From Candidatus Poribacteria bacterium (GTDB lineage Bacteria; Poribacteria; WGA-4E; PCPOR2b), in NCBI GenBank assembly GCA_965218095.1, contig OZ244587.1, positions 4,896,001-4,960,000 of the forward strand: a stretch of 64,000 bases of DNA. The letters are read 5' to 3'. A program made the position numbers and the translations under genes. Every line of letters starts with the position of its first letter. Position 1 is the first letter of the stretch. The notes below the pieces were generated by a model. That model did no database searches. It was not told the origin of the DNA and was given only the letters and a program-made list of their open reading frames with translations. Positions 1,271-53,218 of the stretch are shown one piece after another.

Positions 1271-1295
1271 GGTCAGGACTTACACACTTCAGATT

Positions 1296-1392
1296 GTAGG
1301 GAACGCAGATCTGCGTTCCCTACTTACCCATAGAAAGGGGCATAGGCACAAGGAATCAGGCGTATGTAGGGACTAACATCGCTAGTCTCCAC
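1296..1392. repeat. GTAG-type REP-like palindromes
   Basis: Perfect 28-bp palindrome GTAGGGAACGCAGATCTGCGTTCCCTAC at 1296-1323 and an imperfect GTAG-led hairpin at 1366-1392. Confidence 0.7.
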
Positions 1393-1593
1393 GAATCAAA
1401 AGTACAACGCTGAAAAATGAGATAAGCGATTCTAGGCTAATACAGGCTAATACAGGCTAATGAGCTGCGGGCACTAGAGAAGCATCACCGATAACTGGAA
1501 TCTCAGGCAGCGAGCGGATTCAACGCCGGGTATGACAGTCTGAAATCTACAATTTCAACTTTTAGCCTAAAAGAGCAAGAGGAGAGAGTCACT

Positions 1594-1878
1594 ATGCCAT
1601 ATACCAATTATACCTCCAAAGAGGTTGCATCACGGGGGGAAGCAATCTATAGGCGAGAGATACGTGACAAAGTTGAGCCGAAGCACAAAGGCAAGTTTTT
1701 GGTCATTGACATCGAAACGGGTGAATACGAAATGAATGCCGACGATTTGGTAGCCACGAAACGTCTTCTTGCCAAGCATCCCAATGCTGTCGTTTACGGC
1801 TTACAAATCGGCTTTCCAACCGCTTATCGAATCGGCGGACACTTTAAGGAAATGAGGGAGAGCATAATTATCGTCTGA
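1594..1878 (+). CDS. Small DUF5678-like protein
   Basis: RBS GAGGAG. The pattern GEAIY...HKGKFLVIDIETGEYE...IG matches this small-protein family. Confidence 0.7.
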   Translation: MPYTNYTSKEVASRGEAIYRREIRDKVEPKHKGKFLVIDIETGEYEMNADDLVATKRLLAKHPNAVVYGLQIGFPTAYRIGGHFKEMRESIIIV

Positions 1879-1924
1879 ATCACAGATTAAACAGATGAAA
1901 CGGAAAACACGGATTAGTCCAATT

Positions 1925-2099
1925 GGGCAACCACGAGGGTTGCCCCTACGGAGGAGGACCCCATGTAGGGGCAGGTCTTGTGCCTGCCCGCAACAACTGT
2001 TGACGCTCATGTTAAGAATTAGTGCAACAGCACCGATTTGCCTCAAAAACCGTAGGCGGGGCATCCCCGGTCACGGGATCCTCTCGGACTTGCCCCGCC
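1925..2099. repeat. Cluster of GTAG/CTAC-bounded REP-like hairpins
   Basis: GGGCAACC-ACGAG-GGTTGCCC-CTAC at 1925-1949, GTAG-GGGCAGG...CCTGCCC at 1965-1989, GTAG-GCGGGGCA...TGCCCCGCC at 2052-2099. Confidence 0.7.
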
Positions 2100-2192
2100 C
2101 TCAACGCCTTCACCGTAATTGCACTCCGTTTTTACATGAGCCACTGTTGATTTTGGAAAATCGACCTACAGAAGTGAAAAAGGGGACAAATT

Positions 2193-3458: not shown

Positions 3459-3964
3459 TGGCGGTGATTGTAGATACAAATGTCGCTTTGGTCGCTAGTG
3501 GATGGTCAGAGCACGCATCTGAGGATTGTGTGGCAACCTGTGCTGAGAGACTTGGACAGATTAACAACGGTGAAGTGAAATTAGCGTTGGATGATCAACG
3601 GCGAATCATTGATGAATACCGGGGACAACTGAATCCGGATGGTCAGCCGGGTATCGGCGATGTGTTTCTTAAATGGGTAGAAATGAATTGGGCAAACCCT
3701 GATCGGTGTGACTTGGTTGCGATTACGCCTGTCGATGGTTCAGAAAATGAGTTTGAAGAGTTCCCAGACGATCCGGCATTGAATGATTTCGATTCAGATG
3801 ATCGGAAATTTATCGCGGTTGCAGTTGCCCATTCAGAGAACCCACCTATCCTACAAGCGGTGGATAGTCAGTGGTGGGATTTCCGTGATGCTCTCCGTCG
3901 GAATGGTGTGACAGTGGTGTTTATTTGCGAAACTGACATTCAACGGTTACGCGGGGGTAGTTGA
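3458..3964 (+). CDS. PIN-like domain protein coupled to the ATPase
   Basis: N-terminal VIVDTNV, then DSDDRKFIAVA and AVDS acidic motifs. TAATG overlap with the ATPase stop. Confidence 0.75.
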   Translation: MAVIVDTNVALVASGWSEHASEDCVATCAERLGQINNGEVKLALDDQRRIIDEYRGQLNPDGQPGIGDVFLKWVEMNWANPDRCDLVAITPVDGSENEFEEFPDDPALNDFDSDDRKFIAVAVAHSENPPILQAVDSQWWDFRDALRRNGVTVVFICETDIQRLRGGS

Positions 3965-4006
3965 ACGAAGGCTTGCTGAATAAAGGACAACGGTGAGGTA
4001 AATTAA

Positions 4007-6496
4007 ATGAACAACATTCGTGTCGATATACGCCTTCGACCCATTCGGTTCGGATTTTTGGTTCGTCCAGATGACAAGGAAAAGGTACTTGAGATTTTCC
4101 GTATCAATACATGTTTGTGGGGCGGCATATTCAATCCCATTATCCCTTTGTTTGAATCTGTACCATTTTGGCTGGAAGAAGAGGGTTTTCGTTTTGAGAA
4201 TCCCAAGCAAATCATCAGAGATTACCTAGATTTCTTTGAACCCGACTTCCTTGTTGAGGCAGAAGAAGGGTTAGCAGAAGGATTCGACTTTGACCCAGAA
4301 AGGGTACGGCTACTTGCAGATATGATAGAAGAGCCAGGAGGGAATTACGCACATAGATATGGATTAAGCGTCTATGGGATCTATCAGGATTTATATACAA
4401 AAGCATTTCAGTTTGAGCAACGTCACAAAAATCCGGTTGTTCACGTACAACCAGCCGATGCAGCTTTCACAAATTTCGCTGCGGCTCATTTCGGAAGCTT
4501 TCCAACTCAAGAACGGCTTAGGTATTTTGAACATAACTACAAAGGTATATTCAATCCAAAACAGATAGTATTGGATGCTGCTGCGTTCTCAGAACTATAT
4601 CAATCCGGGTATAGTTCTGCCCTAGAAATGGGTCGTGCAAAACTTCGGGTAGGTTATAATGCACCGCTGTTGTCTACATTATTCATATTAGATCCGCATG
4701 AGTCAAAAGATCTAGTCAATTTCTGGAATTTGCGGGCAATACATCAACATGTTCTTGCGGTCCCTATTCAATGGATTGAAGAGCTTTCACCTTTCTGTAA
4801 AAAATTCATTCGGGATAATTATCGCCGTCAGCCTGATGACCCAGGCGGGAAAATGGTTGGTCCTGTCTTAATGTTTTCACGCTCTCTATCTGAGGGGGAC
4901 GTAGAAGAAATAGTAGGAAATTGCTCTTTTGTTGAGGAGGGGGATGTTTACACAATACAAAGATGGGCTCCAACCATCTGGTATAAGTTGTCAGAACAGG
5001 TTGCTAGCCCTACCCGTCCAACCTTAGAAGCCGACAGGAAAACCATGAATTTACCTATTGATGGAGATAATCCTGAAATTCGATTTGATCTTCTCTTTCC
5101 AGAGTTCATCATCAGTGAATATAATCTATATCGTGTGGCAAATGTTGTCAGGTTGCAAGATTGGAGCAATGAAGATTACGTTGCCAGAGTACGCGATAGA
5201 ATCGACAATGATCAAATAGCCACAGTTTTTCCGTGTAATTATAAAAATCCTGCTGTTCCCAAATTCCAACCCGAATTCCTGCAGGAAGAGCAGTATCTTT
5301 TGTCCACTACTGAAGGTTTAGTTATTTTTCCTTATAGGGAGAATTTTTCTGAATTGTGGAATTTAGTTGATGGAACCACGGCATTCAATCAATGGTTGAC
5401 AGCTAAACAAGTGCCTGCCATTCGTTCTGATGCGGGGAGAGCAACACAACAGATCATTCAGACATTGGGAGGTTTGCAGCAGGGTGTTCTCTGCCTAGCA
5501 CATAAAGGTGTTATTGAATTACTCGACGAAATGACAAGAAAACTCACCAAGTCCTTCCATTGTCAGAAATTTCGGAGCAAGATCCGTAACGCGGTCAATA
5601 ACGAGAGATTGAAAGACAGAACTTTTGAGATATTGGTCAGGCAGAAGGCTGTTGAACTTGGATTAGAACTTAAATGTAGCAAGTGCAGTAAGTGGAGTTG
5701 GTATTCAGTAAACCAACTTGATTACTCACTAATCTGCAATTTCTGTTTTAAGCCGTTTGATTTTCCTATTATTGCCCCTACAGATAAAAAACATTCCAAA
5801 TGGGCTTATCGTGTCGTAGGACCGTTTGCTCTACCTAAATACGCTGATGGGGGGTATGCTGCCGCCCTAGCTATCCATTTCTTTACAGATGTTATAGGTG
5901 GATTCGATCAAGCAGGAGTAACTTGGTCGTCTGCTCAAGAACTGAAGTTAAACACAGATAAAAAGGTCGAAGCTGATTTTATGTTATGGTATCGGCGCAA
6001 AGAGATTTTTGGAACGGAGCGGTCGTTTTTTGGAAATGGTTTGCCTATTTTTGGAATAGATCGACCTACCGAAACGGTGTTCGGCGAAGCTAAGAGTTTC
6101 GGTAGGCGCGGCGAGGATGTTTTTGAGCAAGATAATGTTGATAGAATGAAATTATTGGCGAAAAAGTTTCCGGGGTCTATATTGGTATTTGCTACGATGA
6201 AAGAAGAACTTTCTCAGGAAGAAGTTGACCGCATCAAAGAACTAGCGGAATGGGGACGGGAATATGATCCGGAAAAGAGACAAACGCGCGCGCCAGTGAT
6301 AGTGCTTACCGGGACAGAGTTGTTCTCGACAGGCTCTTTAAATACTTCATGGGAAAAAAAAGGGGGAAAGCACAAGGAGTTGATTGATCGAGCATGGCCA
6401 GGCAGGCATAATCTGAGATTCTTGGCAGACCTTACACAACATGTATATTTGGAAATGCCACCGTATGGATCGACTATGACTCAACTAATAAGATGA
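4007..6496 (+). CDS. Large hypothetical protein with Zn ribbon and C-terminal PD-(D/E)XK-like nuclease motif
   Basis: 829 aa, visibly AT-rich. CSKC...CNFC zinc ribbon and an EADF...GEAKS motif. Confidence 0.7.
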   Translation: MNNIRVDIRLRPIRFGFLVRPDDKEKVLEIFRINTCLWGGIFNPIIPLFESVPFWLEEEGFRFENPKQIIRDYLDFFEPDFLVEAEEGLAEGFDFDPERVRLLADMIEEPGGNYAHRYGLSVYGIYQDLYTKAFQFEQRHKNPVVHVQPADAAFTNFAAAHFGSFPTQERLRYFEHNYKGIFNPKQIVLDAAAFSELYQSGYSSALEMGRAKLRVGYNAPLLSTLFILDPHESKDLVNFWNLRAIHQHVLAVPIQWIEELSPFCKKFIRDNYRRQPDDPGGKMVGPVLMFSRSLSEGDVEEIVGNCSFVEEGDVYTIQRWAPTIWYKLSEQVASPTRPTLEADRKTMNLPIDGDNPEIRFDLLFPEFIISEYNLYRVANVVRLQDWSNEDYVARVRDRIDNDQIATVFPCNYKNPAVPKFQPEFLQEEQYLLSTTEGLVIFPYRENFSELWNLVDGTTAFNQWLTAKQVPAIRSDAGRATQQIIQTLGGLQQGVLCLAHKGVIELLDEMTRKLTKSFHCQKFRSKIRNAVNNERLKDRTFEILVRQKAVELGLELKCSKCSKWSWYSVNQLDYSLICNFCFKPFDFPIIAPTDKKHSKWAYRVVGPFALPKYADGGYAAALAIHFFTDVIGGFDQAGVTWSSAQELKLNTDKKVEADFMLWYRRKEIFGTERSFFGNGLPIFGIDRPTETVFGEAKSFGRRGEDVFEQDNVDRMKLLAKKFPGSILVFATMKEELSQEEVDRIKELAEWGREYDPEKRQTRAPVIVLTGTELFSTGSLNTSWEKKGGKHKELIDRAWPGRHNLRFLADLTQHVYLEMPPYGSTMTQLIR

Positions 6497-6523
6497 ATTG
6501 GAAGAATCTGAGGTGTTGGAATT

Positions 6524-7825
6524 ATGAAGCGTTATCCTGAATATAAAACGAGTGGTGTGGAGTGGGTTGGGAAAATACCGCACCATTGGAGGTTAAGCAG
6601 AATTGACTCCCTTTTTTTTCGGAGAAGAGAAAAAAATACCAACATCATTAGCGACAACATCTTGTCTGTCCTAAAGGATCGCGGGGTCATTCGTTATGAA
6701 GATAAAGGAAACATCGGTAACAAGGTTTCTGAGAAAATTGAAAACTATCAACTTGTATATGCCGGTGACATAGTTGTAAATAACATGAATGTCACTATCG
6801 GGTCTGTAGGAAGGTCAGACCAATTTGGGGCTTTGTCAGGGATTTATATTGTTCTTGCCCCCAAAAGGGATAATGTTGACATGGGTTACTACGAATATGT
6901 ATTCAAAATAAAACCTTTCCAAAAAAGTCTGATTCAAATATCATCAGGTTTGATGGAAATTCGTGAATCTCTAAATTTCATCGAGTTCAAAACTCTAAAA
7001 CTACCAACACCACCATTCTCTGAACAAACCCAAATCGCCAACTTCCTCGATTGCAAGACGGGACAGATTGATGAGCTCATCCGCATCAAAGAACGACAGG
7101 TAGAACTGCTGCACGAACAACGAACTGTCCTGATAAATCAGGTAGTGACGAAGGGACTTGACCCGAATGTGGAGATGAAACCGTCGGAGGTGGAGTGGAT
7201 TGGGGAGATACCGAAGCATTGGACTCTTACAAGATTGAAGTATGTTTCCAACATCCCGGTGACTTATGGTCTTAATATTGAGGCTGATAGATATAACACA
7301 GAAGGAATCAGATTGATAAGAATTACTGATATTGATGAAAGTGGAGGTCTCCGTCAGAAAGGGGTTTATCTGCCTGAAGACTGCGTTCCTCAAGAGCAGA
7401 TGCTTAATAGTTATGATTTGCTTTTGTCTCGTAGTGGAGCAACAGTGGGAAAATCTTATCTACACTTTGAAGAAGGAAAATACACTAGTGCAGGCTATCT
7501 CGTTAGGTTTAACTTCGGTGATTATTGTACATCGAAATTTATCTACTATGTGACACTATCACATTTTTATAGAAATTGGCTTGAGCAGCAGATAATCATC
7601 TCGACAATCCAGAATGTCAATGGCGAAAAGTATTCAAATTTCCAACTCCCTATTCCTTTGCACCAAGAACGGAAACAAATCGTTGCCTTCCTTGACTCCA
7701 AGACACAACAGATTGACGAACTGATAACCGCGGAGCAGCGAAAAATTAAACTCCTTAAAGAATACCGTCAATCCCTCATCTCCGAAGCGGTGACCGGCAA
7801 GATAGATGTCCGAAGCGAGGTTTAG
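6524..7825 (+). CDS. hsdS: Type I R-M specificity subunit S
   Basis: YPEYKTSGVEWVGKIPHHW, EQTQIANFLD, KPSEVEWIGEIPKHW and SLISEAVTGKID conserved blocks flank two target-recognition domains. Confidence 0.95.
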   Translation: MKRYPEYKTSGVEWVGKIPHHWRLSRIDSLFFRRREKNTNIISDNILSVLKDRGVIRYEDKGNIGNKVSEKIENYQLVYAGDIVVNNMNVTIGSVGRSDQFGALSGIYIVLAPKRDNVDMGYYEYVFKIKPFQKSLIQISSGLMEIRESLNFIEFKTLKLPTPPFSEQTQIANFLDCKTGQIDELIRIKERQVELLHEQRTVLINQVVTKGLDPNVEMKPSEVEWIGEIPKHWTLTRLKYVSNIPVTYGLNIEADRYNTEGIRLIRITDIDESGGLRQKGVYLPEDCVPQEQMLNSYDLLLSRSGATVGKSYLHFEEGKYTSAGYLVRFNFGDYCTSKFIYYVTLSHFYRNWLEQQIIISTIQNVNGEKYSNFQLPIPLHQERKQIVAFLDSKTQQIDELITAEQRKIKLLKEYRQSLISEAVTGKIDVRSEV

Positions 7826-7828
7826 ACC

Positions 7829-10783
7829 ATGCCGACGTATACAGAAGAAAATTTTGAAGATCACATCGAAGCGCAGTTGAACCGGGCGGGCTATCGGTCG
7901 CGACAACCCGCTATCTATAATAAAGACCTCTGCTTGATACCCAATGAGACACTGCAATTTATTCGGGATACGCAACTGGAGGAGTATCAGAAACTGGAAC
8001 GCCAGTACGAGGAAAAGACGCCAGTTAACCTCATCAACCGTGTGAGCAAAGAGATTGAACGTCGCGGGGTGTTGGACGTACTGCGGAAAGGGGTTAGAGA
8101 CAGGGGGTGTTACTTTGACCTGACCTACTTTCAACCGTCAAGTGGCATGAACCCCGACCATCAAAGGCTCTACGCGCAGAACCGATTCTCTCTGATTCGG
8201 CAGCTAAAGTATTCACAGAAAGGCGGAGAATCGCTTGATATGGCGTTGTTCCTCAACGGTTTACTGTTAATAACAATGGAACTGAAGAACAGCCTCACCG
8301 GTCAGGTAGTGACAGATGCGGAGAAACAGTACCGGACCGAACGGGATCCGAGAGAGCCGTTGTTCCAATTCAAGCGGTGTCTGGTTCACTTTGCGGTGGG
8401 GAACGAAAAGATTTCGATGACGACCCACTTGCGGGGAGACCAGACGCGATTCTTTCCGTTTAACAAGGGGGTCGAAAACCCGGTGAATCCGGACGGTCAC
8501 AAGGTCGCCTACCTGTGGGAAGACATCCTACAACCCGGTAACCTGATGGAGTTAATCAACAGCTTTATCCATGAGCAGGAGGTTACAGAAAAGGTTTACG
8601 ACCCCGGACGCGACGCGGTGAAAGATGTGAAGCGCCGCGTGCTCGTTTTCCCTCGATACCATCAGCTTGACGTGATCCGTCAGTTGAAGAAGGCTATCGT
8701 TGCGGAGGGGGTTGGGCGCAACTACCTGATCCAACACGCCACAGGGAGCGGCAAGTCAAACTCCATCGCATGGTTGGCGCACCTGCTCACGCATCTGTAC
8801 CGTTCTCCAACTGATACAAAGCGCATCTTCGACTCCGTTATCGTCGTAACCGATCGGCGCGTGCTTGACAAGCAACTTCAGGAGACGATCAAACAGTCGG
8901 AACAGGTCGAAGGCGTGGTTCACTCCGTCGATAAAACCTCGGCGCAACTCAGAGGGTTCCTCGAATCTGGCAAAGACATCATCATCTCAACGATTCAGAA
9001 ATTCAGTATGATTGCCGAGACAATCGGGGCACTCAAAAGCAGGACCTTCGCCGTGATTATCGATGAAGCCCACTCCTCGCAGAGCGGCGAGTCCGCAAAG
9101 AACCTCAAAGTGTCGCTCTCGAAAGGGATTCCGGCAGAGATAGAAGATGATGACGACCTCGAAGTATCGGATATGGACGCCCGGATCATTGAGGAGATGG
9201 AACGGCGCGGGGCGCAGGATCATATCTCCTATTTCGGTTTCAGCGGCACACCGAAGAACAAAACTTTGGAACTGTTCGGACGGAAGGACGCGGACGGGAA
9301 ATTTGTCCCGTTCCACGTTTATTCGATGCGCCAGAGTATCAGCGAAGGCTTCACACTCGACGTGTTGCAGAACTACACCACCTTTAAGCGATACTTTCAA
9401 CTGGTCAAAAGTGTGCCGGAGGATAAAGCGTATGAGAAGGGACGGACGCTGCGGATGCTGACGAATTACGTTGACCTACAGCCCCACAGCATTGAGACCA
9501 AGACACGGATTATCCTAGAACACTTCACCGCACGGACCGCAAAGACAATTGAAGGGAAGGGAAGGGCGATGTTGATTACGCCGTCCCGGTTGCACTGCGT
9601 CAGATATAAGTTAGAATTCGATAGGCAGATGCGGGAGATGGATCTCCCCTACGGCTGTCTGGTGGCGTTCAGCGGCACGGTGCACGACACCGATAACGGA
9701 CGGGACTACACGGAAGACGGGATGAATGAGTTACCGTCGCGCGTGTCAATTGCAGACAGTTTCAAGAGTCCTGAGTATCGGATTCTGATTGTGTCTAATA
9801 AGTTCCAGACCGGTTTCGATGAGCCGCTCCTACAGACGATGTACGTCGATAAGCGGCTCGACGGGCTGCAATGTGTCCAGAGCTTAAGCCGCCTGAACCG
9901 AGTCGCTACCGGTAAGACGGAGACGCTAGTGCTTGATTTTGTGAATGAACCCGACCAGATACAAGCGGCGTTTCAGCAATACTATGAAACAACGATGCTT
10001 GAGGAAGAGACCGACCCGAATCGGTTGTATGATCTACAGGGTCAATTGGAGGATTTTAACCTCTACGATGCGGATACGGTCAACCAATTCTGTGTTGTCT
10101 TTTATGACCCGGATCGGCCTGACGAATTTCTACAGGGCATTTTGGATCGGGTCGTTGAGAAGTGGTCAGACCTTGAAACGAATGAGAGGGAAGAATTTCG
10201 TTCTACCTTGCAGAGTTATATTCGCCTCTACGGCTACATCTCACAGTTGATTACCTTCACCGACGCAGCGTTGGAAAAGCTGTACGTTTTCGGTCGCAGT
10301 CTCAACAAGAAGCTGCCGAAACGGGACCACCCTGACCTGCGTGATGTGCTGGCATCTGTCGACTTGGATTCGTTTCGTGTGGAGAAAATCCACGAAGGTC
10401 AGAAACTGCAACTCGAAGCGGGAGATAGCGAAGTCGAAGGGATTGGCAGTGGTGTTCGCGCAGCTAGAGATTCGGTGGAGGATTTACTCTCCAAAATCAT
10501 TCAGACTTTGAACGAGGCCTTTCAGACAGACTTCACAGCGGAAGATAAGGTTGACATTGAAACCATTTACCGAAAAGTTCGTGAGCACGAAGAACTTCGG
10601 CAGGTGATTGAAGGGGATAATTCGGAGAGCAATAAATGGTATAAGTTTGATCGGGTGGTTAATGACATTTTATACGATTTCGTCGATAGTAAGTTGGAAC
10701 TCTTCACGAAATTATCACAACGGGAGGTCAATGCGGATCTTAAGCGTCAACTCTATGAAGCCTATCGTGAGCAACAGCGATAA
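7829..10783 (+). CDS. hsdR: Type I R-M restriction subunit R
   Basis: D...ELK nuclease motif, HATGSGKS Walker A, DEAH box, TGFDEP, QSLSRLNR helicase motifs. Confidence 0.95.
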   Translation: MPTYTEENFEDHIEAQLNRAGYRSRQPAIYNKDLCLIPNETLQFIRDTQLEEYQKLERQYEEKTPVNLINRVSKEIERRGVLDVLRKGVRDRGCYFDLTYFQPSSGMNPDHQRLYAQNRFSLIRQLKYSQKGGESLDMALFLNGLLLITMELKNSLTGQVVTDAEKQYRTERDPREPLFQFKRCLVHFAVGNEKISMTTHLRGDQTRFFPFNKGVENPVNPDGHKVAYLWEDILQPGNLMELINSFIHEQEVTEKVYDPGRDAVKDVKRRVLVFPRYHQLDVIRQLKKAIVAEGVGRNYLIQHATGSGKSNSIAWLAHLLTHLYRSPTDTKRIFDSVIVVTDRRVLDKQLQETIKQSEQVEGVVHSVDKTSAQLRGFLESGKDIIISTIQKFSMIAETIGALKSRTFAVIIDEAHSSQSGESAKNLKVSLSKGIPAEIEDDDDLEVSDMDARIIEEMERRGAQDHISYFGFSGTPKNKTLELFGRKDADGKFVPFHVYSMRQSISEGFTLDVLQNYTTFKRYFQLVKSVPEDKAYEKGRTLRMLTNYVDLQPHSIETKTRIILEHFTARTAKTIEGKGRAMLITPSRLHCVRYKLEFDRQMREMDLPYGCLVAFSGTVHDTDNGRDYTEDGMNELPSRVSIADSFKSPEYRILIVSNKFQTGFDEPLLQTMYVDKRLDGLQCVQSLSRLNRVATGKTETLVLDFVNEPDQIQAAFQQYYETTMLEEETDPNRLYDLQGQLEDFNLYDADTVNQFCVVFYDPDRPDEFLQGILDRVVEKWSDLETNEREEFRSTLQSYIRLYGYISQLITFTDAALEKLYVFGRSLNKKLPKRDHPDLRDVLASVDLDSFRVEKIHEGQKLQLEAGDSEVEGIGSGVRAARDSVEDLLSKIIQTLNEAFQTDFTAEDKVDIETIYRKVREHEELRQVIEGDNSESNKWYKFDRVVNDILYDFVDSKLELFTKLSQREVNADLKRQLYEAYREQQR

Positions 10784-10819
10784 TTGTGCGACGACAGGGA
10801 TTTTTGGAAGGAGTTTTAG

Positions 10820-13156
10820 ATGTTTGAACAGTTAATGAAATACCCAATCGACATCTTCCGCAGGGGCGATTTTTATTTCGGCATTCGCCTGCCAGGACTC
10901 ATTCTGTTCCTCATCTTCGTCGCCCTGATTGCCGTGTCGATTTGGGCGTATCGAACGGCCCGGGGGCGTACGCATCGGGGGTTCCGCGGATTTCTGATCT
11001 TCCTCCGAGCCGTCGCGCTCTGTGGACTTGCGTTCTGTCTGCTCAAGCCTTTTGTCGCAATCTACCAAACAAGCCCGGACGATTCCTACCTCTTGCTACT
11101 GTTGGACGAATCCAAGAGTATGCAGGTGACCGATTCCGTCAATCAGGAATCCCGTCTGAGCAGGGTGAACCACCTGCTCTTTGACCCGGAGGGTGGGATA
11201 CTGAATTTGCTCAATGAGAGATTCAAGACACGGTTGTTCTCCTTTGCTGCCAGTCCAAAACGGATGGCTCCCGTTGCGCTAACTCAGGCGAACGGCGAAA
11301 CCACCAATATCCCCGTTGCGCTGAATGAGGCATTAGACAATTTGCAGGGCGTGCCCCTATCGGGCGTGGTTATTTTCTCTGACGGTGCGGATAGGAGCGG
11401 CGAAGATATCACCAAACTCGCCTTTCGGATGCGGGAACGCAAGATGCCTGTTCATACGGTTGGCGTCGGTTCAGCGGAAGGAATCGACGATATTGAAATC
11501 GTGAAAATTGATGTCCCTCGCACGGCGGAAGAGGATTTTCCTGTTGAAATTTGGGTAACTGTCAGTTGGAAGGGTTATGACCAACGCGCTGTCACGCTGA
11601 GACTGAAGGATAAAAACCGTGTCGTCAAAATGCTGACTGTAAATCTTGATAAAGATCAGCCAACCCGTCGTGTGCCAATCAAATTTATCCCGCGCAATCC
11701 GGGAACTCAAAAGTATGTGGTTGAAATTTCACCCGAAACTGACGAAGCCATTCCGCAAAACAATACCAAAAAATTCCTGCTAAAGGTTGCTCCGAGCAAG
11801 CGGGTCAAGATTTTATACGTTGATGGTCGACCACGTCCGGAACTTAAATTCATCAGGCGTGCCTTTGAGAACGATCCGAATATCCGATTGACAGTTCGAT
11901 ACTTCATTGATGATACGAATATCGGAGGAACGAAAAGTGTCACTGAACATGAATTTGACCTCTATCCGAACTCAAAAGAAGTGCTCTTTGATTATGATGC
12001 AATCATCTTTGGCAACATCGCGGCGTCAGCCTTTACGAAGCAACAGCTTGAAAACACAGCGGAATTTGTACGGACGCGCGGCGGCGGATTTCTGATGCTT
12101 GGCGGGTCAAGTTCGTTAAGCAATCACAATACAGAGGATTCCTACATCAATACGCCGATTGCACAGATTCTTCCGGTCGAACTTGAGTTGGGGACGCCAC
12201 CGGTCCCGCCCCCGGCGAGACACCGGTTTGCAATCCCTCCACTACGAGATCGGAAGCCCCCGGAACTAGGATATGCATTACAGTTGACCGCTGAAGGGAA
12301 AACGGATCCGTTGATGGCTTTAGCGGACCAGCCACGCGCGAACGTGATGCGTTGGGGCAAACTGCGAACCTTAATTGGCTATAGCCGGGTGCAGCGAGCG
12401 AAAGCCGGCGCGACAGTCCTCGCTGTGCATCCCACAGACCGCAATGAATTCGGCAATCGCATTCTCATCGCAACCCACAACTACAATGCAGGTCGTGTCA
12501 TGGTCTTCACGCCTTCCAGTTCGTGGCGCTGGCAGATGCTAATGCCGCATGAGGATGAAAGCCATGAACGCTTCTGGCGTCAGGTGGCCAAATGGTTGAC
12601 AACAATTCCAAAAGATCAACTCAAACTCGATATTGCAAAAACTTCATATGCTCTAAAAGAGCCTGTGGTTATCGAGGCAGCCGCTTATAATCACCAATTT
12701 GAATTGACCAATCAAGCAAAAGTGCGTGTAATCATCATAGATGGGAATGGAAAAAAAAGAGAGCTTCATCTTGAACAGGTACTTGGAAAGGATGGATTAT
12801 ACGCGACCCGATTTATCCCCCCTCGGCGCGGCGAGTATCGGGTGGATCTGATTGGCAGCTTAGGCAGTAAAAGTTTAGGTGGACAGCACGGACTCTTTGA
12901 GGTCGCGGAGTCCCACGCTGAGTTCACGAATGCGGAACTTAACACACAATTGCTGCAAACCCTTGCCAAGACCAGTGGCGGCGAATACTATACCCTCGAC
13001 GATGCGTCAGAGATGGTGAACCACATCCCCTTAGTTGAAAGTGCAACATCGCGCCTTGTCGAGGAGGATGTTTGGGACATGCCGCTCATTTTCGGAAGCG
13101 TCACCCTGCTTTTCGGGTTAGAATGGTTCCTACGTAAACGGCGCGGTTTGGCTTAA
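10820..13156 (+). CDS. Membrane-anchored vWA / Ig-like / glutamine amidotransferase-like protein
   Basis: Two N-terminal TM segments, DESKSM MIDAS-like motif, SDGAD, GGGFLMLGG, and the C-terminal EWFLRKRRGLA tail. Confidence 0.8.
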   Translation: MFEQLMKYPIDIFRRGDFYFGIRLPGLILFLIFVALIAVSIWAYRTARGRTHRGFRGFLIFLRAVALCGLAFCLLKPFVAIYQTSPDDSYLLLLLDESKSMQVTDSVNQESRLSRVNHLLFDPEGGILNLLNERFKTRLFSFAASPKRMAPVALTQANGETTNIPVALNEALDNLQGVPLSGVVIFSDGADRSGEDITKLAFRMRERKMPVHTVGVGSAEGIDDIEIVKIDVPRTAEEDFPVEIWVTVSWKGYDQRAVTLRLKDKNRVVKMLTVNLDKDQPTRRVPIKFIPRNPGTQKYVVEISPETDEAIPQNNTKKFLLKVAPSKRVKILYVDGRPRPELKFIRRAFENDPNIRLTVRYFIDDTNIGGTKSVTEHEFDLYPNSKEVLFDYDAIIFGNIAASAFTKQQLENTAEFVRTRGGGFLMLGGSSSLSNHNTEDSYINTPIAQILPVELELGTPPVPPPARHRFAIPPLRDRKPPELGYALQLTAEGKTDPLMALADQPRANVMRWGKLRTLIGYSRVQRAKAGATVLAVHPTDRNEFGNRILIATHNYNAGRVMVFTPSSSWRWQMLMPHEDESHERFWRQVAKWLTTIPKDQLKLDIAKTSYALKEPVVIEAAAYNHQFELTNQAKVRVIIIDGNGKKRELHLEQVLGKDGLYATRFIPPRRGEYRVDLIGSLGSKSLGGQHGLFEVAESHAEFTNAELNTQLLQTLAKTSGGEYYTLDDASEMVNHIPLVESATSRLVEEDVWDMPLIFGSVTLLFGLEWFLRKRRGLA

Positions 13157-39959: not shown

Positions 39960-40839
39960 TATGGTAGATCTTAGAATTAATGGTACATTTGAATAATATC
40001 GTGAAGTGTGGTTTCGGGGTGATATTCTCGGTATCGCTTGATATTGGCAAAATCGTGTTCAATCGGATTGTAATCTGGAGAATAAGGCGGTAGGAACATC
40101 AGACTCGCTCCTGAAGCCTCTATCAACTCTCGGGTCCGAGGTGTTTTGTGAAGCCGCGCATTATCAAGGATTACAACCTGTTTTGAAGTCAAACGTGGAC
40201 ATAACTGTTCAGCTAACCAGTCATTGAAATCTACCGCTTTGCAGCTCCCTTTGAACACCCGTGCCGCAATAAGTGTCGCTGTCCGGGTGCGTTGGCTTGA
40301 GATAAGTCCAAAGACTTTTTCCCCTTTGGGTGCATACCCATAACGTCTATAACTTTCGTCTCGAAACCCACTCTCATCGACATAAACAAAAGACTTACCA
40401 GAGGCTTTCACTTGTGCGAGTTGCTGAAGATACGCTTGTCGTTTTTCAGCGCATTGCTCCTTATATCCGAGACTTTTTTTCGGGTGCAACCGATATTTTT
40501 CAGCCCATACCCGATACAAGACTTTGACACACCAAAATGAGCTGCGCGCTCGGCGTAGGTCTGGTCTGGAAAATCAGCGACATGTTTTCTCAGCGCATCG
40601 GGGTCAAGGGTTCGCGGGCGACGGGGCCCTGGTTTTTGACGTTTGAGCGGGTCAGGCGCATTCAACCACTTATACAGTGTTGAGCGGGCGACGGAAAAAC
40701 GGCGGCTCGCTTCGGTCTTACCACCGCCAGCTGCGATAAAATCTAAGACGCGTTTGCGTAAATCTAAAGAATAGGCCATAATAACTATAGGATACCAGCA
40801 ATATAAGAAAATGTCTACTTATTTATAGGGTTCGCCATA
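39960..40839 (-). mobile_element. IS630-family element with two ORFs joined by a -1 frameshift
   Basis: HTH ORF 40408-40779 and DDE ORF 39977-40519 (DESG, DNA, PPYSPDYNPIE). A7G slippery site at 40473-40480. Imperfect IRs with TA ends. Confidence 0.9.
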
Positions 40840-47342: not shown

Positions 47343-47735
47343 ATGCTTTTTAATTTCGCGAATGTGCTCATCTTTTTGGTTGTTGGTTGCTTATTTGTAA
47401 CACTTAACCTCACTGTTTCTCGCTTGCTCCAAACTAGGCTGTTTATGGATGAAAAATATATACCTTATGAGTGCGGTGAGGATCCAATTGGTGATACTCG
47501 TATCAAGTTTAATGCGCGTTTCTACGTCATTGCGCTAATTTTCTTGATTTTTGATGTTGAGATTGTGTTTCTGTTTCCGTGGGGCGTTGTTTTCCGTGAT
47601 ATTGGTATTCTTGCATTCGTCGAGATGTTGATTTTCATCTTTATTCTACTGGTCGGCCTTGCCTACGTTTGGGCGAAAGGGGACCTCGAATGGATCCGCT
47701 TGATTCAGTCAGTAAGGGAGGAAAGTAACCAATGA
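47343..47735 (+). CDS. nuoA: NADH-quinone oxidoreductase subunit A
   Basis: PYECG, FDVE..FLFPW, KGDLEW. Confidence 0.96.
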
Positions 47736-48346
47736 TAATCGAAGAGAAACTGGATAAGAACATTATTGTGACCTCCATTGATGCCGTTGCCAACTGGGCA
47801 CGCGCGTCTTCTTTGTGGCCTATGACCTTTGGTCTCGCCTGTTGCGCGATCGAGTTTATGGCGACTGCCGCTGCTAATTATGATCTGGATCGCTTTGGCG
47901 CCGGTGTTCCTCGTGCGACTCCCCGTCAATCCGACCTGATTATCGTTTCGGGAACGGTCACGTTGAAAATGGCAACCCGGATTAAACGCCTCTATGAACA
48001 GATGCCTGAACCAAAATATGTCATTTCTATGGGAAGCTGCGCTACGAGTGGAGGTCCCTACTGGCAGCACGGCTATCATGTCCTGAAGGGTGTAGATCGA
48101 ATTATCCCTGTTGATGTCTATGTTCCAGGTTGCCCCCCGAGACCGGAAGCTGTACTTGAAGGTTTGATGAAGTTGCAAGAAAAGATTAAAACACAGACGG
48201 TAGCGAAACGGGCCAATATGCCTTTCTTAAAGAAACTTTTCACCAAAACGGACCTGGAGAATAATGAACAAGCAATGGCTGCAGCACAGGCTGAAGCGCA
48301 GGCACATCTCGCCGAACATGAAGAACAGGAAGAAGCCGCTGATTAA
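47732..48346 (+). CDS. nuoB: NADH-quinone oxidoreductase subunit B
   Basis: [22 protein letters not shown]. Confidence 0.97.
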
Positions 48347-48431
48347 ACTCACTAACCTTTCAAAGGTTCAATTTTAAGAAAGGAGAATTGCAACGTGATT
48401 GGCAACTTTCCAAAAGCGTTGCCTTTTTTCC

Positions 48432-48917
48432 GTGACACCACAAGAAGTTTACGAAAAACTAAAAGATAAATTTGGAGAATCAATCCTCTCCTTTGAAGAA
48501 GCCATCGCCGATCCGTTTATCGTCGTCTCACCCGAATCGATTGCTGATGTCGCAGAATACCTTGCCGAAAATGAAGCATTAGCTTTTGATTTCCTCATGT
48601 GTTTAAGCGGCGTAGATCTTGGCGCCAAAGATTCCAATTTTTACGTCGTGTATCACCTCTACTCAATGACCCACCGTCACAAACTGGTCCTTAAAGTCAT
48701 TCTTCCTAAAGAAGAAGAACCCCACGTTTCCACCGTTGAGCATATCTGGAAAACCGCCAACTGGCATGAGCGGGAGGCGTATGATCTGTATGGGATTGTC
48801 TTCGATGGGCACAGCGATCTGCGTCGCATCTTGCTTCCAGACGATTGGGAAGGATACCCGTTGCGTAAGGATTATAAGGAGCCGGAGTTCTATCGAGGGA
48901 TGCGAGTGCCGTATTGA
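48432..48917 (+). CDS. nuoC: NADH-quinone oxidoreductase subunit C (start uncertain)
   Basis: ANWHEREAYDLYGIVFDGH, LRRIL, PLRKDY. Confidence 0.96.
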   Translation: MTPQEVYEKLKDKFGESILSFEEAIADPFIVVSPESIADVAEYLAENEALAFDFLMCLSGVDLGAKDSNFYVVYHLYSMTHRHKLVLKVILPKEEEPHVSTVEHIWKTANWHEREAYDLYGIVFDGHSDLRRILLPDDWEGYPLRKDYKEPEFYRGMRVPY

Positions 48918-48943
48918 TGTACGTTGGGAGGGAGCAAAAAACG

Positions 48944-49183
48944 ATGGCGCTGTCAGAGCAGTATCAACAACAGATTATCAATAGACTTAAACAATTGCCA
49001 GAGGAAAAATTAGCCGAGGTTGTCGATTTTGTGACATTCTTAAAGGACAAATATCAACCTTGCACAGAGAAAAAAATAGTCAAATTTGGCGGTCTATAGA
49101 AAGGGTTTGAACCTACGGATAAGGGAATTCAAGCGGCGCAGAAAGAAATGTGGCACCATCTTGATACAAAGGAAATACCATGA
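48944..49183 (+). pseudogene. DUF2281-like antitoxin-type small protein with in-frame TAG at 49097
   Basis: LPEEKLAEVVDFVTFL, then GGL*KG. The frame ends in an ATGA overlap with the next gene. Confidence 0.75.
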
Positions 49184-49545
49184 GTGAGCAAGTTACTATC
49201 CAGGTATCCGACCGGGTAATACATCATGCAACGCATACAGCAGCGCAGAATCAACGGCGAATTGAGGAAGTATTGTCAGACTGGTTAGAGGGCGTCATCA
49301 CTGAAATGCCGGTAGAAGCGATGCCAGATGAGGAAATATTAGCACTTGCGGAACTTCAACTTACGACGGAGCAGCAGACAACCTTGAGCGACTTGTTGGC
49401 GCAGAACCGGGAAGATACCCTCAATGACGAGAGACGCCGTCAACTAGATGAGTTGATGGGCGCCTACGAACGCGGTCTACTTCGCAAGGCGCAAGCGCTT
49501 CGGGTTGCTGTGCAACGAGGTTTACGCGAACCGCTACGGCCATGA
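49180..49545 (+). CDS. Small helical protein coupled to the HNH gene (antitoxin-like)
   Basis: Ribbon-helix-helix-like N-terminus and LRKAQAL..AVQRG tail. ATGA overlap with the HNH gene. Confidence 0.7.
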   Translation: MSEQVTIQVSDRVIHHATHTAAQNQRRIEEVLSDWLEGVITEMPVEAMPDEEILALAELQLTTEQQTTLSDLLAQNREDTLNDERRRQLDELMGAYERGLLRKAQALRVAVQRGLREPLRP

Positions 49546-49949
49546 GCTCAACTATTGTGTCTGCCACCATACGTCAGCGTGTGCGAGAGGCTGCATGTGA
49601 CCGTTGTGGTTACTGTCTCAGTTCACAACAGTATGTGATGGGGAAATTGGAAACCGAACACATTATTCCACTGGCTCGGGGCGGGAGCAATGATGAGTCA
49701 AACCTGTGGCTTTCTTGTAGTTTGTGCAACCGTTATAAGGGGGCTCAGATTGCGGGAGGTGACCCATATAGCGGTGAAACGGTGGCGTTGTTCAATCCAC
49801 GTACTCAGGTCTGGAGCGAACATTTTCGCTGGAGTCGGGACGGAGCACATATCCTTGGCTTAACGCCCATTGGTCGGGCAACTGTTGAAGCGCTTCGACT
49901 CAATAACGATGTAGCGGTATTAGCCGGCTGGCATCCCCCCGAGGTGTAA
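49542..49949 (+). CDS. HNH endonuclease
   Basis: CGYC, EHIIP..GGSN..SNL..SCSLCN, LFNPR, GRATV. Confidence 0.9.
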   Translation: MSSTIVSATIRQRVREAACDRCGYCLSSQQYVMGKLETEHIIPLARGGSNDESNLWLSCSLCNRYKGAQIAGGDPYSGETVALFNPRTQVWSEHFRWSRDGAHILGLTPIGRATVEALRLNNDVAVLAGWHPPEV

Positions 49950-50080
49950 CGTGAAGTTTCCTTTCATTACGACCTCCGTTAATGTGGAAGAAGAAGAAAG
50001 CCAAAGATGCAATCATTTACTTGTTTCGTGAAGAAAGAGGGAACCTAGTCTATTTTGCTTGATAGTAAAGAGGAACTTGT

Positions 50081-50446
50081 ATGGAAGCAAATATAGTTAA
50101 TCTGCAAACTCTGTTTGAACAGCAGGTCTCATATCAAATTCCTCAATTCCAGAGACGCTACGAATGGAAAGAGAAGAGGCAATGGCAACCTCTCTGGGAA
50201 GATGTACGTAAGGCTGCAATGCGCTTTCGCAACAAGGAAGGGCACGATAAAATACGACCACACTTTATGGGAGCCATCGTCCTACAACTGCAACAAAGCA
50301 ATACTGGGGAGGTAACGAAAAGACTGGTAGTTGATGGACACAGCGATCTGCATTGCATCTTGCTTCCGGACGACTGGGAAGGGCACCCCATGCGTAAGGA
50401 TTATAAAGAGCCTGAGTTCTATCGAGGGATGCGAGTGCCGTATTAA
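50081..50446 (+). pseudogene. DUF262 (GmrSD-like) N-terminal fragment fused to the duplicate nuoC tail
   Basis: IPQFQRRYEW, HFMGAIV and LVVDG, then a switch to the nuoC tail HSDL...RVPY in place of DGQQR. Confidence 0.9.
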
Positions 50447-50456
50447 TGCGTGAGTA

Positions 50457-51240
50457 ATGATAGAAGACCAAATACGAATAACCCAAATACGACGGATTTG
50501 CGATGAGCACCGTATAACAACACTTGTGCATTTTACCCGGATCGAAAATCTATCTAGCATTCTGCAAAAAGGTGTATTGAGTCGCAGTATTCTGGAAACA
50601 AGCGGACAACAGTTTTTCTGGAATGATTCAGATCGGGCTGATGGACATCCAGAAGCAATTTGCTTAAGCATTAGTTTTCCAAACTATCGCATGTTCTATT
50701 CAATTAGATAAGGAGAAGGAGAATACTCAAGGGGTTAACGATTGGCAGTGGGTTGTTTTACTTCTTGATGCAAAAATGTTGTGGGAGTTGGACTGTGCAT
50801 TTTGTCAAGAAAATGCCTCATCTAACGCTGTTCGTTATATTCCATTGGGGGATAGAAAAAAACCTGATGCACTAAAAGGTATGGTAGAAGATTACCACGC
50901 TATTAAGCGTCAATCTTTACAAATACCCAGCGACTACCCAACGCATCCCCAAGCAGAAATTCTGGTATTTGACCAAATTCCTGCACGGTATATCAACGAA
51001 GTCCATTTTTTTACTAATACTGCTTTGGAGCAATGGTTGGCTAGCAGCCAAGCAGCTTTTTCTCGAACAGTTTCCGGTGAACCGCGCTATAGCTATCAAC
51101 GAGAATATTTCTATCCTAGATGTGATTACCTAAAATGGCAGTCTGCTGGTTCGGACAACAATGATATATCTGAGGTTGACGAGCATCAGGATTTTTGTGA
51201 GAATTCCGAGCCATGTATAGAGAAGGATATACCTTTTTAG
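50457..51240 (+). pseudogene. darT: DarT (DUF4433) DNA ADP-ribosyltransferase, frameshifted near 50705
   Basis: HFT..NL.SIL..G, RADG, CLSISFPNY.MF in one frame; W.V, ENASS and QAEILV (catalytic E) in the +1 frame. Confidence 0.82.
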
Positions 51241-51252
51241 GAGGTGAGAGGA

Positions 51253-52065
51253 ATGGCAAAACGCCCTATTTTTACCCCTGATTTCAGCGATTTTCCTTAT
51301 GTTAAAGCGGTGGACATAGAGTTTCGATGGTATTCTGGTTTTGCAAAATCGCAGCTCCAAAAATCCATCGCCTCCCTACACAAAGCCGCTGAGGATAAAG
51401 GCATTGCTCCAATTTTGGAAATCTCAGGAAAATCTACTTCAGCCTTGGGTGTTTCATTGAGTGCTTTTAATCTCCCTTTAAAAACGACAAACGGACAAAC
51501 GTTGAGCGTGGAATGTGCCTATCAAGGAAGCAAGGTGTTTGAAAACGGTGGCCCCTACCAAGATCTGTATTCGGTCTCGAGTCGAGTGGCGAAAACCGAC
51601 GAGCGGTTGCGGAATTCGGGGGAGCTAATTGCTTTTGACTTCTTCGGTGAAGACTTTCCCATAGAACCCCAAACAGCTTTCTACGACTGGTTATACCTGA
51701 CTGCGCTTTGGCAGAAAAATCCAAATATAGCAAAAGAAGAGCTTGAACCGTTTGAAGGGTTTTCAGATATAGTCTTTAATCCGCAACGATCTCTCAATTG
51801 TCAAGCACGTACCGCCGCGCTTTTTGTTTCGTTAAGCAAAGAAGAGTTGCTTGATGAACAGTTTCTCAATAAGGATTGTTATCTTGAACGAATGGCTTGC
51901 GACTTGGATTGCAACTCAGATAGTCGGAACCGACAAACCGAGCTGACTGCACACCAACTCTATCTATGGCCATTCACTGAAAAATTTAAGGCTACTAAGT
52001 TCCTGTTAATCAACCTAATCGGGTTAAAGGAAATTCATCATGGCAGTACCACAACCGGAAAGTAA
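51253..52065 (+). CDS. DarT1-associated NADAR-type antitoxin (DUF6977-like)
   Basis: MAKRPIF, GFAKSQ.QKSI..LH, LEISGKS, LSAFNL, YQGSKVF, FYDWLY, FNP..SLNCQA. Confidence 0.82.
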   Translation: MAKRPIFTPDFSDFPYVKAVDIEFRWYSGFAKSQLQKSIASLHKAAEDKGIAPILEISGKSTSALGVSLSAFNLPLKTTNGQTLSVECAYQGSKVFENGGPYQDLYSVSSRVAKTDERLRNSGELIAFDFFGEDFPIEPQTAFYDWLYLTALWQKNPNIAKEELEPFEGFSDIVFNPQRSLNCQARTAALFVSLSKEELLDEQFLNKDCYLERMACDLDCNSDSRNRQTELTAHQLYLWPFTEKFKATKFLLINLIGLKEIHHGSTTTGK

Positions 52066-53218
52066 ATTTATTGAACTGAAGCCATTTTCAGATGAAATGG
52101 TTGTTAGCATGGGGCCACAGCACCCAAGCACCCACGGGGTTTTAAAACTTGAACTGAAACTGGATGGAGAGATTGTCCGAGAAGCGACTCCTCATATTGG
52201 GTATCTGCACCGCTGCTTTGAAAAACATTCTGAGAATCTGAATTATCAGCAGATTATTCCGTTTACCGACCGGATGGATTATATTGCAGCGATGAATATG
52301 AATTGGGGATTCTGTCTGGCGGTTGAGAAGCTGATGGAGGCGGATGAAAAGAAATCCTCCGGTATTCCCGAACGTGCAGAATACCTGCGTGTGCTCATCG
52401 GTGAGTTAAACCGAATCGGGAGTCATTTGTTGTCCTTCGGCACCTACGGCATGGATATTGGCGCGTTCACCCCATTTCTTTACGCCTTTAGAGACCGCGA
52501 GAAAATCCTCCTGCTTTTTGAAAAAATCTGCGGTGCACGATTAACGTACAATTATATCCGTGTCGGTGGAGTTTCAAGGGATACACCCCCGGGATTTCTT
52601 GATGAGGTTAAGGAATTTATCGACTATTTCGAGCCGAAGATCGATGAGTACAACGCACTACTCACAGCCAACCGCATCTTCATTAAGCGCACAGCAGACG
52701 TAGCTGTCATGGATACAGAAATGGCGATTAACTACGGTATCACGGGGCCAAACCTACGTGGGGCAGGTCTACAATGGGATCTGCGCAAAGATGAACCGTA
52801 CTCCATTTATGACCGATTTGACTTTGACATTCCGGTTGGCAAAGATATTCCGGAACTTGGTGTGGTTGCTGGCGACTGCTGGAGTCGGTATAAAGTTCGG
52901 ATGGACGAGATGAAACAGTCCGTGCGAATTGTCCGGCAGATCCTTGAGGAGGGGATTCCCGATGGACCAATTCAGGCTGAGATGAAAGCCGTTCGTCCGC
53001 CCAAGGGGGAGATCTTCTTCCGAAGTGAGGCGCCGCGTGGAGAAATTGGATTTTACATTGTGAGCGATGGCACGCCAAAGCCGGTTCGAGTCAAAGCCAA
53101 ATCCCCCTGCTTTACAGCGTTGAGCGCGTTTCAGGAGTTGAGTCGCGGATTGATGGTTGCGGACATTATCGCGATTATCGGCAGTATTGATATTGTCATG
53201 GGAGAAGTGGATCGCTAG
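52040..53218 (+). CDS. nuoD: NADH-quinone oxidoreductase subunit D
   Basis: GPQHPSTHGVL, GYLHR, EAPRGE, GEVDR end. Confidence 0.97.
   Translation: MAVPQPESKFIELKPFSDEMVVSMGPQHPSTHGVLKLELKLDGEIVREATPHIGYLHRCFEKHSENLNYQQIIPFTDRMDYIAAMNMNWGFCLAVEKLMEADEKKSSGIPERAEYLRVLIGELNRIGSHLLSFGTYGMDIGAFTPFLYAFRDREKILLLFEKICGARLTYNYIRVGGVSRDTPPGFLDEVKEFIDYFEPKIDEYNALLTANRIFIKRTADVAVMDTEMAINYGITGPNLRGAGLQWDLRKDEPYSIYDRFDFDIPVGKDIPELGVVAGDCWSRYKVRMDEMKQSVRIVRQILEEGIPDGPIQAEMKAVRPPKGEIFFRSEAPRGEIGFYIVSDGTPKPVRVKAKSPCFTALSAFQELSRGLMVADIIAIIGSIDIVMGEVDR

Follow-up and report, generated by a model that had tools for sequence, protein, structure and literature searches.

How a second, diverged copy of the end of a core respiratory gene came to lie behind the beginning of a restriction gene is the question raised by the complex I (nuo) operon of a Candidatus Poribacteria bacterium. 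The locus lies in a stretch of 64,000 nucleotides (nt) of contig OZ244587.1 (assembly GCA_965218095.1, positions 4,896,001 to 4,960,000, forward strand), which is called the window here and whose numbering is used throughout; the source genome is a single 6.35-Mb contig. Between nuoC and nuoD, the window holds an insert of 3,122 nt, in which defence and toxin-antitoxin (TA) genes, some of them broken, are found together with the duplicated nuoC tail. We consider it likely that this tail is the scar of one recombination between two nuoC-nuoD haplotypes from related Poribacteria-type lineages, of a kind resembling homology-facilitated illegitimate recombination (HFIR).

The duplicated nuoC tail and its joint with GmrSD

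For comparison, all 40 relatives returned were used, namely families f1 (n=24), f3 (n=5), and f2 and f4 together (n=11). They include no other species of the same genus, and the closest share 82-87% nuoC amino acid (aa) identity. The features needed first are the following.

48399..48917, + strand: nuoC, intact (Pfam Complex1_30kDa, E 6e-47; the exact 161-aa protein occurs on 4 contigs; in database proteins the start is 48432)
48804..48919, + strand: nuoC tail copy 1, the end of the working nuoC; tail protein identical to that of P0131; a DUF2281-type leader comes next
50081..50338, + strand: first 86 codons of a GmrSD (DUF262) type IV restriction gene (Pfam GmrSD_N; 86% nt identity to the gene of relative G019)
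50333..50346, + strand: illegitimate joint in an imperfect homology patch (GATGGNCA, then CAGCGA offset by one base)
50333..50448, + strand: nuoC tail copy 2 (relic), in frame with the GmrSD fragment; a TGCGTG-type leader comes next
52040..53218, + strand: nuoD, intact (Pfam Complex1_49kDa), the right flank and a possible homology anchor

A repeat search recovered the two tails as a direct repeat of 116 nt, 90% identical and spaced by 1529, which is the sole long dispersed direct repeat in the whole window. Alignment and codon count gave 12 differences in 114 coding bases, consisting of 7 synonymous changes, 4 missense changes (R>H, R>C, Y>H, L>M) and TGA>TAA. The open reading frame (ORF) at 50081-50446 matches GmrSD_N (DUF262; residues 9-87, E 4.6e-14) and then Complex1_30kDa (residues 83-111, E 6.5e-8) in Pfam, and is composed of 86 residues of the GmrSD/DUF262 N-domain followed by the last 35 of the nuoC tail.

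The joint reads GTTGATGGACACAGCGAT, where nuoC copy 1 reads TTCGATGGGCACAGCGAT. At the site of the DGQQR motif, the intact GmrSD genes of G019 and G029 read GATGGACAGCAGCGA and GATGGGCAACAGCGA, respectively, nuoC reads GATGGGCACAGCGA, and the fusion reads GATGGACACAGCGA. Common to GmrSD and nuoC are GATGGNCA (7/8 match) and CAGCGA one base out of register, which together make an imperfect patch of ~20 nt in the DGQQR-coding part of GmrSD and in nuoC codons 135-140. Because the patch codes for D-G in one and the same frame in nuoC and GmrSD, the reading frame continues across the fusion; the motif is cut at DG, and the window reads DGHSD there. By hand arithmetic, the probability of a 7/8 match at a randomly placed joint is about 25/65536.

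The two tails are diverged in the manner of coding alleles. Omega between them is 0.12 (pS 0.31, pN 0.045), and the simulated probability of at most 4 nonsynonymous changes among 11 random, neutral substitutions is 0.002-0.018, depending on the transition bias. Despite this pS, the relic and the GmrSD fragment are free of indels and stops in the window. The window nuoC has a tail of the type EGYPL..K, as in P0131 of the Joint Genome Institute (JGI). The closest other nuoC is P0009/P0143 (93% identity), with a tail of the type EGHPM..K, and the copy 2 tail equals that of P0009/P0143 except for RR>HC. Since the residues at these positions are RR in 36 of the 40 relatives, HC in copy 2 looks like decay after stranding. 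The leaders also differ: the one downstream of copy 1 matches the leaders of G013, G014, G017 and G019, and the one after copy 2 resembles the leader after nuoC in G011/G015 and a relic in G019. P0131, the 126-aa homologue P0146 and the HNH fragment P0004 each come from a 1,394-nt JGI contig, and they probably lie together on one contig, as in the window.

The two copies are nearest to each other, with 12 differences; from the tails of all 40 relatives, copy 1 differs at 13 or more sites and copy 2 at 16 or more. States that differ from the family majority are found in both copies, and changes fall on both branches. In the tail tree (31 rows, 111 columns), 2 of 28 inner branches are well supported and both copies lie outside the g4 and g5 clades. 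The substitution pattern and the allele matches show that the tails are alleles of two lineages rather than a fresh duplication.

The joint is present beyond this assembly. Logan contigs of runs X3 (1,551 nt; 48886-50436) and X5 (1,535 nt; 48885-50413) show no differences from the window, and both cross the GmrSD/tail-2 joint. Further, the 116-aa protein P0002, encoded on a contig of 8,073 nt in another assembly, shares its first 86 residues with the fusion without a mismatch, and then continues with QQRLT followed by ALHLA, PDDW and KGTPCV, which are the three reading frames of a copy-2-type tail; a copy 1 tail would give ASHLA and KDTRCV, unlike P0002. Relative to the window, the joint of P0002 is shifted 6 codons deeper into GmrSD (DGQQRLT), to the opposite edge of the homology patch.

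An assembly chimera of two co-occurring strains could draw on the nature of the runs, which are mixed communities with several related strains (many variant letters), and on run X2, where the depth is 24.6 over the cassette (that is, ~25) versus 4.6 for the window-identical DarT contig. Contig-based read cover and depth are, however, unsuited to ranking the parts, and neither such depths nor gaps (for example, 48908-50314 uncovered in run X1) are evidence. They give only a hint of strains with DarT-NADAR but no cassette, and of DarT alleles varying among otherwise identical strains. A joint from 50447 to 52027 with 12 letters between (X1, X3, X5; shorter side 20 letters) is the same as the spacer of the empty site in G022 and comes most likely from another species in the samples. 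Against a chimera stand the single-contig genome and the contigs of two runs across the joint; as a variant of the fusion is also encoded in a second public assembly, a chimera is scarcely credible. The original prediction had named a chimera as what would refute it. It had counted the same 12 sites (7 synonymous, 4 missense, 1 stop swap), and had placed the second tail at the DG(QQR) of a DUF262 gene, where the letters resemble nuoC, with tails from different strains; our data agree with it on the count, the joint and the origin of the tails.

Cargo of the nuoC-nuoD spacer

In all 40 relatives, the flanks nuoB/nuoC and nuoD are conserved (nuoC 55-87% and nuoD 79-92% aa identity; nuoC 80-86% nt identity to the closest relatives). 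The gap between nuoC and nuoD ranges from 8 to 4,356 nt, and is at least 250 nt in 18/40 (f1 14/24, f3 4/5, f2 and f4 0/11). Among the f1 gaps, 6/24 are empty (20-28 nt), 4/24 measure 117-160 nt and 14/24 measure 419-2,270 nt; the f3 gaps are 16, 299, 2,820, 3,039 and 4,356 nt, and those of f2 and f4 are at most 120 nt in 11/11. In a comparison of seven loci, both loaded and empty, the nuoD leader AAGGAAATTCATC was conserved, G018 having a variant form.

At least seven cargo types occur in these gaps. DUF2281 adjoins nuoC or lies within the gap in nine relatives, and DUF2281 with a PIN toxin is found in four. GmrSD is found in four relatives, being intact in G019 and G029, split in G008 and present as a C-terminal fragment only in G021; intact DarT-NADAR is found in one (G016). 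The other cargo comprises a trypsin-cohesin-dockerin protease (three relatives), a 140-aa membrane protein (two), an aspartyl-protease-like protein (one) and several ORFs without a family. The protease, from f3 (loci L036, L037 and L038, that is, G038, G035 and G029), is a secreted, trypsin-like protein of 595-632 aa with a cohesin, a dockerin and a Por-secretion-type tail. In eight relatives from two families (loci L005, L006, L009, L026, L032, L033, L036 and L037), a small conserved ORF lies directly before nuoD; it ends ...AWLNLSIQGLE.AYGEDEPEYS.DLIKEVNPHY, is without a Pfam or NCBIfam match, and may have resided in the spacer for a long time. The nuoB-nuoC spacer is enlarged as well in L006 (G013), L016 (G007) and L018 (G023), to about 370-745 nt versus 52 nt in the window, and these enlarged spacers share a non-coding-looking element, with an antisense pseudo-ORF 'MNRFSLKWHHN...' in all three.

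No integrase or transposase family was found in the relatives' spacers (22 sense and 45 antisense ORFs scanned). None of the 45 antisense spacer ORFs (at least 55 aa) has a Pfam match, and all recognisable cargo is therefore co-oriented with the operon. Based on this evidence, the nuoC-nuoD spacer is a real hotspot without an integrase, as had been predicted from the window alone. It is a hotspot because highly conserved, co-oriented core genes flank the spacer, so that DNA of any relative can swap or stack cargo. A donor with an intact DUF262 gene, which had also been expected, is found at the species level in G019, with the order nuoC - DUF2281 - intact 618-aa GmrSD - nuoD. The window is colinear with G019 at 48317-49183 and 50064-50346 (85-86%, blastn), and with DarT-NADAR-nuoD of G016 at 50483-52200 (79%).

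The remaining features of the operon and of the insert, whose genes are all on the nuo strand, are listed below.

47343-47735, + strand: nuoA, complex I operon
47732..48346, + strand: nuoB, the conserved left flank and a possible homology anchor (78-99% aa identity to relatives, tblastn)
48944..49180, + strand: DUF2281/VapB-like antitoxin gene (Pfam DUF2281, E 2.3e-7; NCBIfam TA_VapB below cutoff)
49180..49545, + strand: 121-aa protein, first gene of a pair with HNH, without a Pfam or other family
49542..49949, + strand: HNH endonuclease, 135 aa, intact (Pfam HNH, E 1.3e-11; weak PADLOC PtuB-like matches)
49184..50063, + strand: 880-nt segment (121-aa gene and HNH) that replaces 87 nt of G019 between DUF2281 and GmrSD (blastn blocks)
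50457..51240, + strand: DarT1 toxin gene, frameshift near 50709 (Pfam DarT on both pieces)
51244..52065, + strand: NADAR antitoxin of DarT1, intact (Pfam NADAR-DarT1, E 5.2e-84; 82% identity to the G016 protein)
after nuoD, + strand: nuoH, I, J and K, then nuoL, M and N from 56612, complex I operon

The DUF2281 gene, within the stretch colinear with G019 up to 49183, has a premature TAG at 49097-49099 (GGL* versus GGLW in nine relatives), and relatives carry intact versions of 78-81 aa. Next, the 121-aa gene and the HNH gene overlap by ATGA (stop/start), and an HNH gene follows the 121-aa homologue in 3/7 other loci. The pair occurs in three other genomes of the Poribacteria phylum (loci L061, L062 and L063; 30-52% identity) and, according to Atlas features, also in Cyanobacteria. 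The Atlas neighbours of the 121-aa protein are cyanobacterial hypotheticals, with weaker RHH/Arc-like clusters that serve as a lead only; the pair may be a small TA-like or nuclease module. It is absent from the relatives' nuoC-nuoD gaps save a 56-nt, 89% identical HNH relic in G006. HNH paralogues in the own genome are only distant (40-47% identity), and there is therefore no sign that the module is spreading.

A GmrSD protein combines a DUF262 N-domain with a DUF1524 HNH-like C-domain. Both are present in the G019 protein (GmrSD_N and GmrSD_C), whereas the window holds residues 1-86 only, the remainder of the gene being missing; the fragment has PADLOC matches to mREase_IV, Orf5 and HEC-06. 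The DarT gene starts 10 nt past copy 2 and is split into ORFs 50457-50711 (84 aa) and 50776-51240 (154 aa) in different frames, so that the adjacent NADAR-DarT1 gene, whose end overlaps the nuoD start, stands beside a broken partner rather than the intact DarT of a DarTG1 system. Intact DarT relatives have 239 aa and 258 aa, and intact alleles occur in G016 and P0008. The contigs of three runs lack one base at 50709, so that their DarT frame stays open. Over its first ~25 codons (50457-50540), the window DarT differs strongly from intact P0008 and G016, and the rest is near-identical to P0008. A 15-nt near-repeat, CAAATACGAATAACC / CAAATACGACGGATT, lies near the DarT start.

Three of the six cargo genes are thus broken (DUF2281, GmrSD and DarT), and NADAR and the 121aa/HNH pair are intact, so that the slot in this genome is largely a graveyard. 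Defence and TA cargo is represented by GmrSD (four relatives and the window), DarT-NADAR (one and the window) and DUF2281-PIN (four), next to the secreted protease (three) and the membrane protein (two). The notion of an exchange of defence cassettes overstates what the cargo would do in this genome, given the three broken genes here and the protease and membrane proteins carried by relatives. The spacer in the window contains no integrase or transposase family (Pfam), no Rfam match (E up to 1) and no tRNA gene, and promoters and terminators are no more frequent than in shuffles; in the window, no DDE transposase gene comes closer than the one at 39977-40519.

Joins of the same one-sided kind are seen elsewhere at the site. 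In G019, the 87-nt spacer between DUF2281 and GmrSD carries the last ~14 nt of nuoC and a leader as after nuoC in G011/G015. This decayed relic is identical to the nuoC end and leader of G011 at 45/56 nt (score 34 versus a maximum of 15 in 500 shuffles), and, aligned with gaps to G012, it extends further into the nuoC tail. In G018, DUF2281 begins with its fourth codon behind an empty-site spacer, a nuoD leader and ATGGCAGCA (the first three codons of nuoD), and nuoD itself has a further copy of the leader in front. Judged from these scars, one-sided joins have arisen at nuoC-nuoD on three or more occasions among 41 genomes.

Elsewhere, 41/41 genomes searched also have another nuoC homologue, which is distant (38-45% identity; own copy G000:C1:814951-815403), and the cargo-bearing operon is therefore one of two NDH-1-type gene sets and perhaps not the sole complex I. 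The region is without a second copy in the own genome, and the own nuoC paralogue is only 43% identical; it is therefore not the source of copy 2. At the far left of the window, a type I restriction-modification operon (41-10783; hsdM 41-1270, hsdS 6524-7825, hsdR 7829-10783) has ~5 kb of extra genes between hsdM and hsdS, including an AAA_15/AAA_21 and DUF3696 ATPase (2193-3458) and an 829-aa protein without a Pfam family (4007-6496). An hsdM tail relic, which had been cited as a parallel case, was not found: hsdM compared with window 1-12000 by tblastn and blastn matched only itself.

Origin of the duplicated tail

In the reading that we favour, one haplotype would have carried nuoC (EGYPL) - DUF2281 - 121aa/HNH - GmrSD, and the other nuoC (EGHPM) - DarT1 - NADAR - nuoD. 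One end of the exchange would lie in ordinary homology within the conserved nuo genes, and the other would be an illegitimate join in the ~20-nt imperfect patch (GATGGNCA..CAGCGA) of GmrSD and nuoC, made by HFIR or an equivalent one-sided event. Such an exchange would keep the working nuoC (copy 1), strand the tail of the other lineage (copy 2) behind a truncated GmrSD, and place two cargo sets in series inside the complex I operon. The anchor may have been in nuoC or upstream, in which case the cassette and copy 1 came in; alternatively, in the mirror event, nuoD served as the anchor, and a resident GmrSD was cut by the incoming tail 2-DarT-NADAR. Both versions fit equally well, and the proposal that new cargo was added in front of an older DarT-NADAR is for this reason no better supported than the mirror event.

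Several points weigh against the single recombination. Neither parent was recovered as DNA at near identity. Among longer public proteins, a near-identical intact GmrSD was not found (139 matches at E <=1e-20, the best 79% over 86 residues, from G019); a search of metagenomes for the 86-aa GmrSD fragment returned 4 loci that reach at most 64% identity, among them neither a close relative nor a parent, and the non-nuo GmrSD copies of the same subtype in G013 and G016 have no nuoC, nuoD or DUF2281 remnants alongside. The model also has to assume the entry of DNA into the cell, by natural competence or another route. The relic in P0002 is more decayed, its frame having shifted at least twice compared with the window. 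This would call for a second event or for later reshaping, neither of which a single clean HFIR event predicts; P0002 could also represent the other segregant of one heteroduplex. The DarT start points to a further recombination breakpoint inside DarT, and hence to at least one more recombination here. The tail tree is unresolved at the relevant fork (support 32/69) and gives no direction, and the changes on the copy 2 branch alone (~3 nonsynonymous, 3-5 synonymous) make a weak case versus neutral decay. Finally, runs X3 and X5, or X2, may derive from the source sample, and the read support is perhaps partly non-independent.

The rivals share parts of this anatomy. A simple tandem duplication is excluded, because copy 2 precedes a different leader and DarT, not DUF2281. 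A more elaborate form, in which an unequal nuoC/GmrSD microhomology exchange in one lineage was followed by a deletion and long neutral decay of copy 2, could use the same microhomology within one chromosome and would account for the longer branch of copy 2 (0.099 vs 0.022) and for RR>HC at conserved residues. This course of events would again put DUF2281 after copy 2, where instead a different leader is found with DarT 10 nt on; moreover, the differences are mostly synonymous, the relic and the GmrSD fragment lack indels and stops, and H and M of copy 2 are the states of a working nuoC allele of the other lineage, all of which makes it very improbable. A Campbell-type integration would be somewhat less far-fetched, though still improbable: a donor (tail - cassette - GmrSD N-part) circularised at GATGGNCA and a single crossover in the nuoC tail would duplicate the tail and give the same final anatomy. 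The X5 contig returns by 1529 (50413 to 48885, 31 shared letters), as a circle would, but a k=31 graph makes the same loop from the 31-nt word common to both tails, and the loop is no evidence of a circle. The crossover would be needed within 114 nt of 90% identity, and each tail protein matches one haplotype throughout, none being hybrid (Y,L vs H,M), a comparison of low resolution.

Direct repeats of a gene 3' end flank many integrative elements, and an intact HNH gene lies in the cassette with its relic in the G006 spacer, which might speak for a site-specific mobile element targeting the nuoC 3' end (attL/attR duplication, with the recombinase lost or acting in trans) or for HNH-driven homing. 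We give this little chance, about as little as the elaborate tandem duplication. An att element is defined by a recombinase and identical-core repeats at its ends, but here no integrase, transposase or tRNA lies within the spacer, the repeats differ at 12 scattered sites without an identical core at the ends, and the right end is a truncated host-type gene joined in mid-codon context; the distant HNH paralogues and the absence of the pair from the relatives' gaps, save the G006 relic, also count against this reading. Less remote than any of these, but unlikely, is that the spacer is a dedicated in-operon cassette dock, with TA and restriction genes, always on the operon strand, riding on complex I transcription and stacked repeatedly at a few recurrent microhomology patches. 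The window and P0002 would then be two independent joins, or the segregants of one heteroduplex, in one 20-nt patch, perhaps promoted by breaks from resident nucleases such as 121aa/HNH. Weighed against these alternatives, the one-sided recombination between two haplotypes remains the explanation that we favour.

Relation to known systems and significance

In HFIR, a long anchor of homology on one side is combined with a microhomology on the other (de Vries & Wackernagel 2002; Prudhomme et al. 2002; Meier & Wackernagel 2003, as summarised in PMC5361080). In the account given there, foreign DNA is trapped without a recombinase through a homology anchor and a joint of a few bases; likewise, flank homology, a microhomology joint and partners of different lineages are found at the nuo locus. 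The published events in that account were laboratory transformations, whereas the event here would be read from a natural scar with a ~20-nt imperfect patch and two alleles (the window and P0002). HFIR was also proposed for the sequential displacement of type VI secretion system (T6SS) effector-immunity modules in Vibrio cholerae and for rhs/contact-dependent inhibition (CDI) C-terminal displacement (Kirchberger et al. 2017, PMC5361080). According to this report, each newcomer is placed behind a conserved upstream gene, an older module is pushed downstream with a stranded 3' piece, and arrays stack, as in our case; the anchor there is the toxin system's own gene, whereas at nuoC-nuoD a housekeeping respiratory gene takes this role, with cargo of the TA and restriction type.

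Core defence hotspots between conserved genes were described in Pseudomonas aeruginosa (Johnson et al. 2023, PMC10250203). A fixed site between core genes, with different systems per genome, is common to that description and to the present site. Unlike there, the nuo site lies within a co-transcribed respiratory operon, and its cargo is 0.4-4.4 kb long, on the operon strand only and not exclusively of defence type. Concerning the cargo itself, DarTG1 (DarT1-NADAR) is described as a TA and defence system (Schuller et al. 2023, PMC11543638). The window resembles it in having a DarT gene and then a NADAR-DarT1 antitoxin gene (Pfam), and differs from the system as presented there in that the toxin gene is frameshifted and only the antitoxin is intact.

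Therefore, the event type, an HFIR-like scar with a displaced gene tail, and the site type, a defence hotspot between core genes, are both already known, and no new mechanism is revealed. Judged by titles and the starts of abstracts, no description of a cargo site in the nuo operon was found in the literature, which speaks only weakly for its absence. The present case is set apart by its place inside the complex I operon, by the strictly co-oriented cargo and by the quality of the record. Because both cargo arrangements occur in relatives, the tails match working alleles, the microhomology is readable and three scars lie at one locus, this is an unusually well-resolved natural case of cargo entering and piling up between core genes without mobile-element machinery. 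It indicates that a respiratory operon can act as a cargo slot in sponge-symbiont-type bacteria, and it bears on the expression and exchange of defence and TA genes in uncultured lineages.

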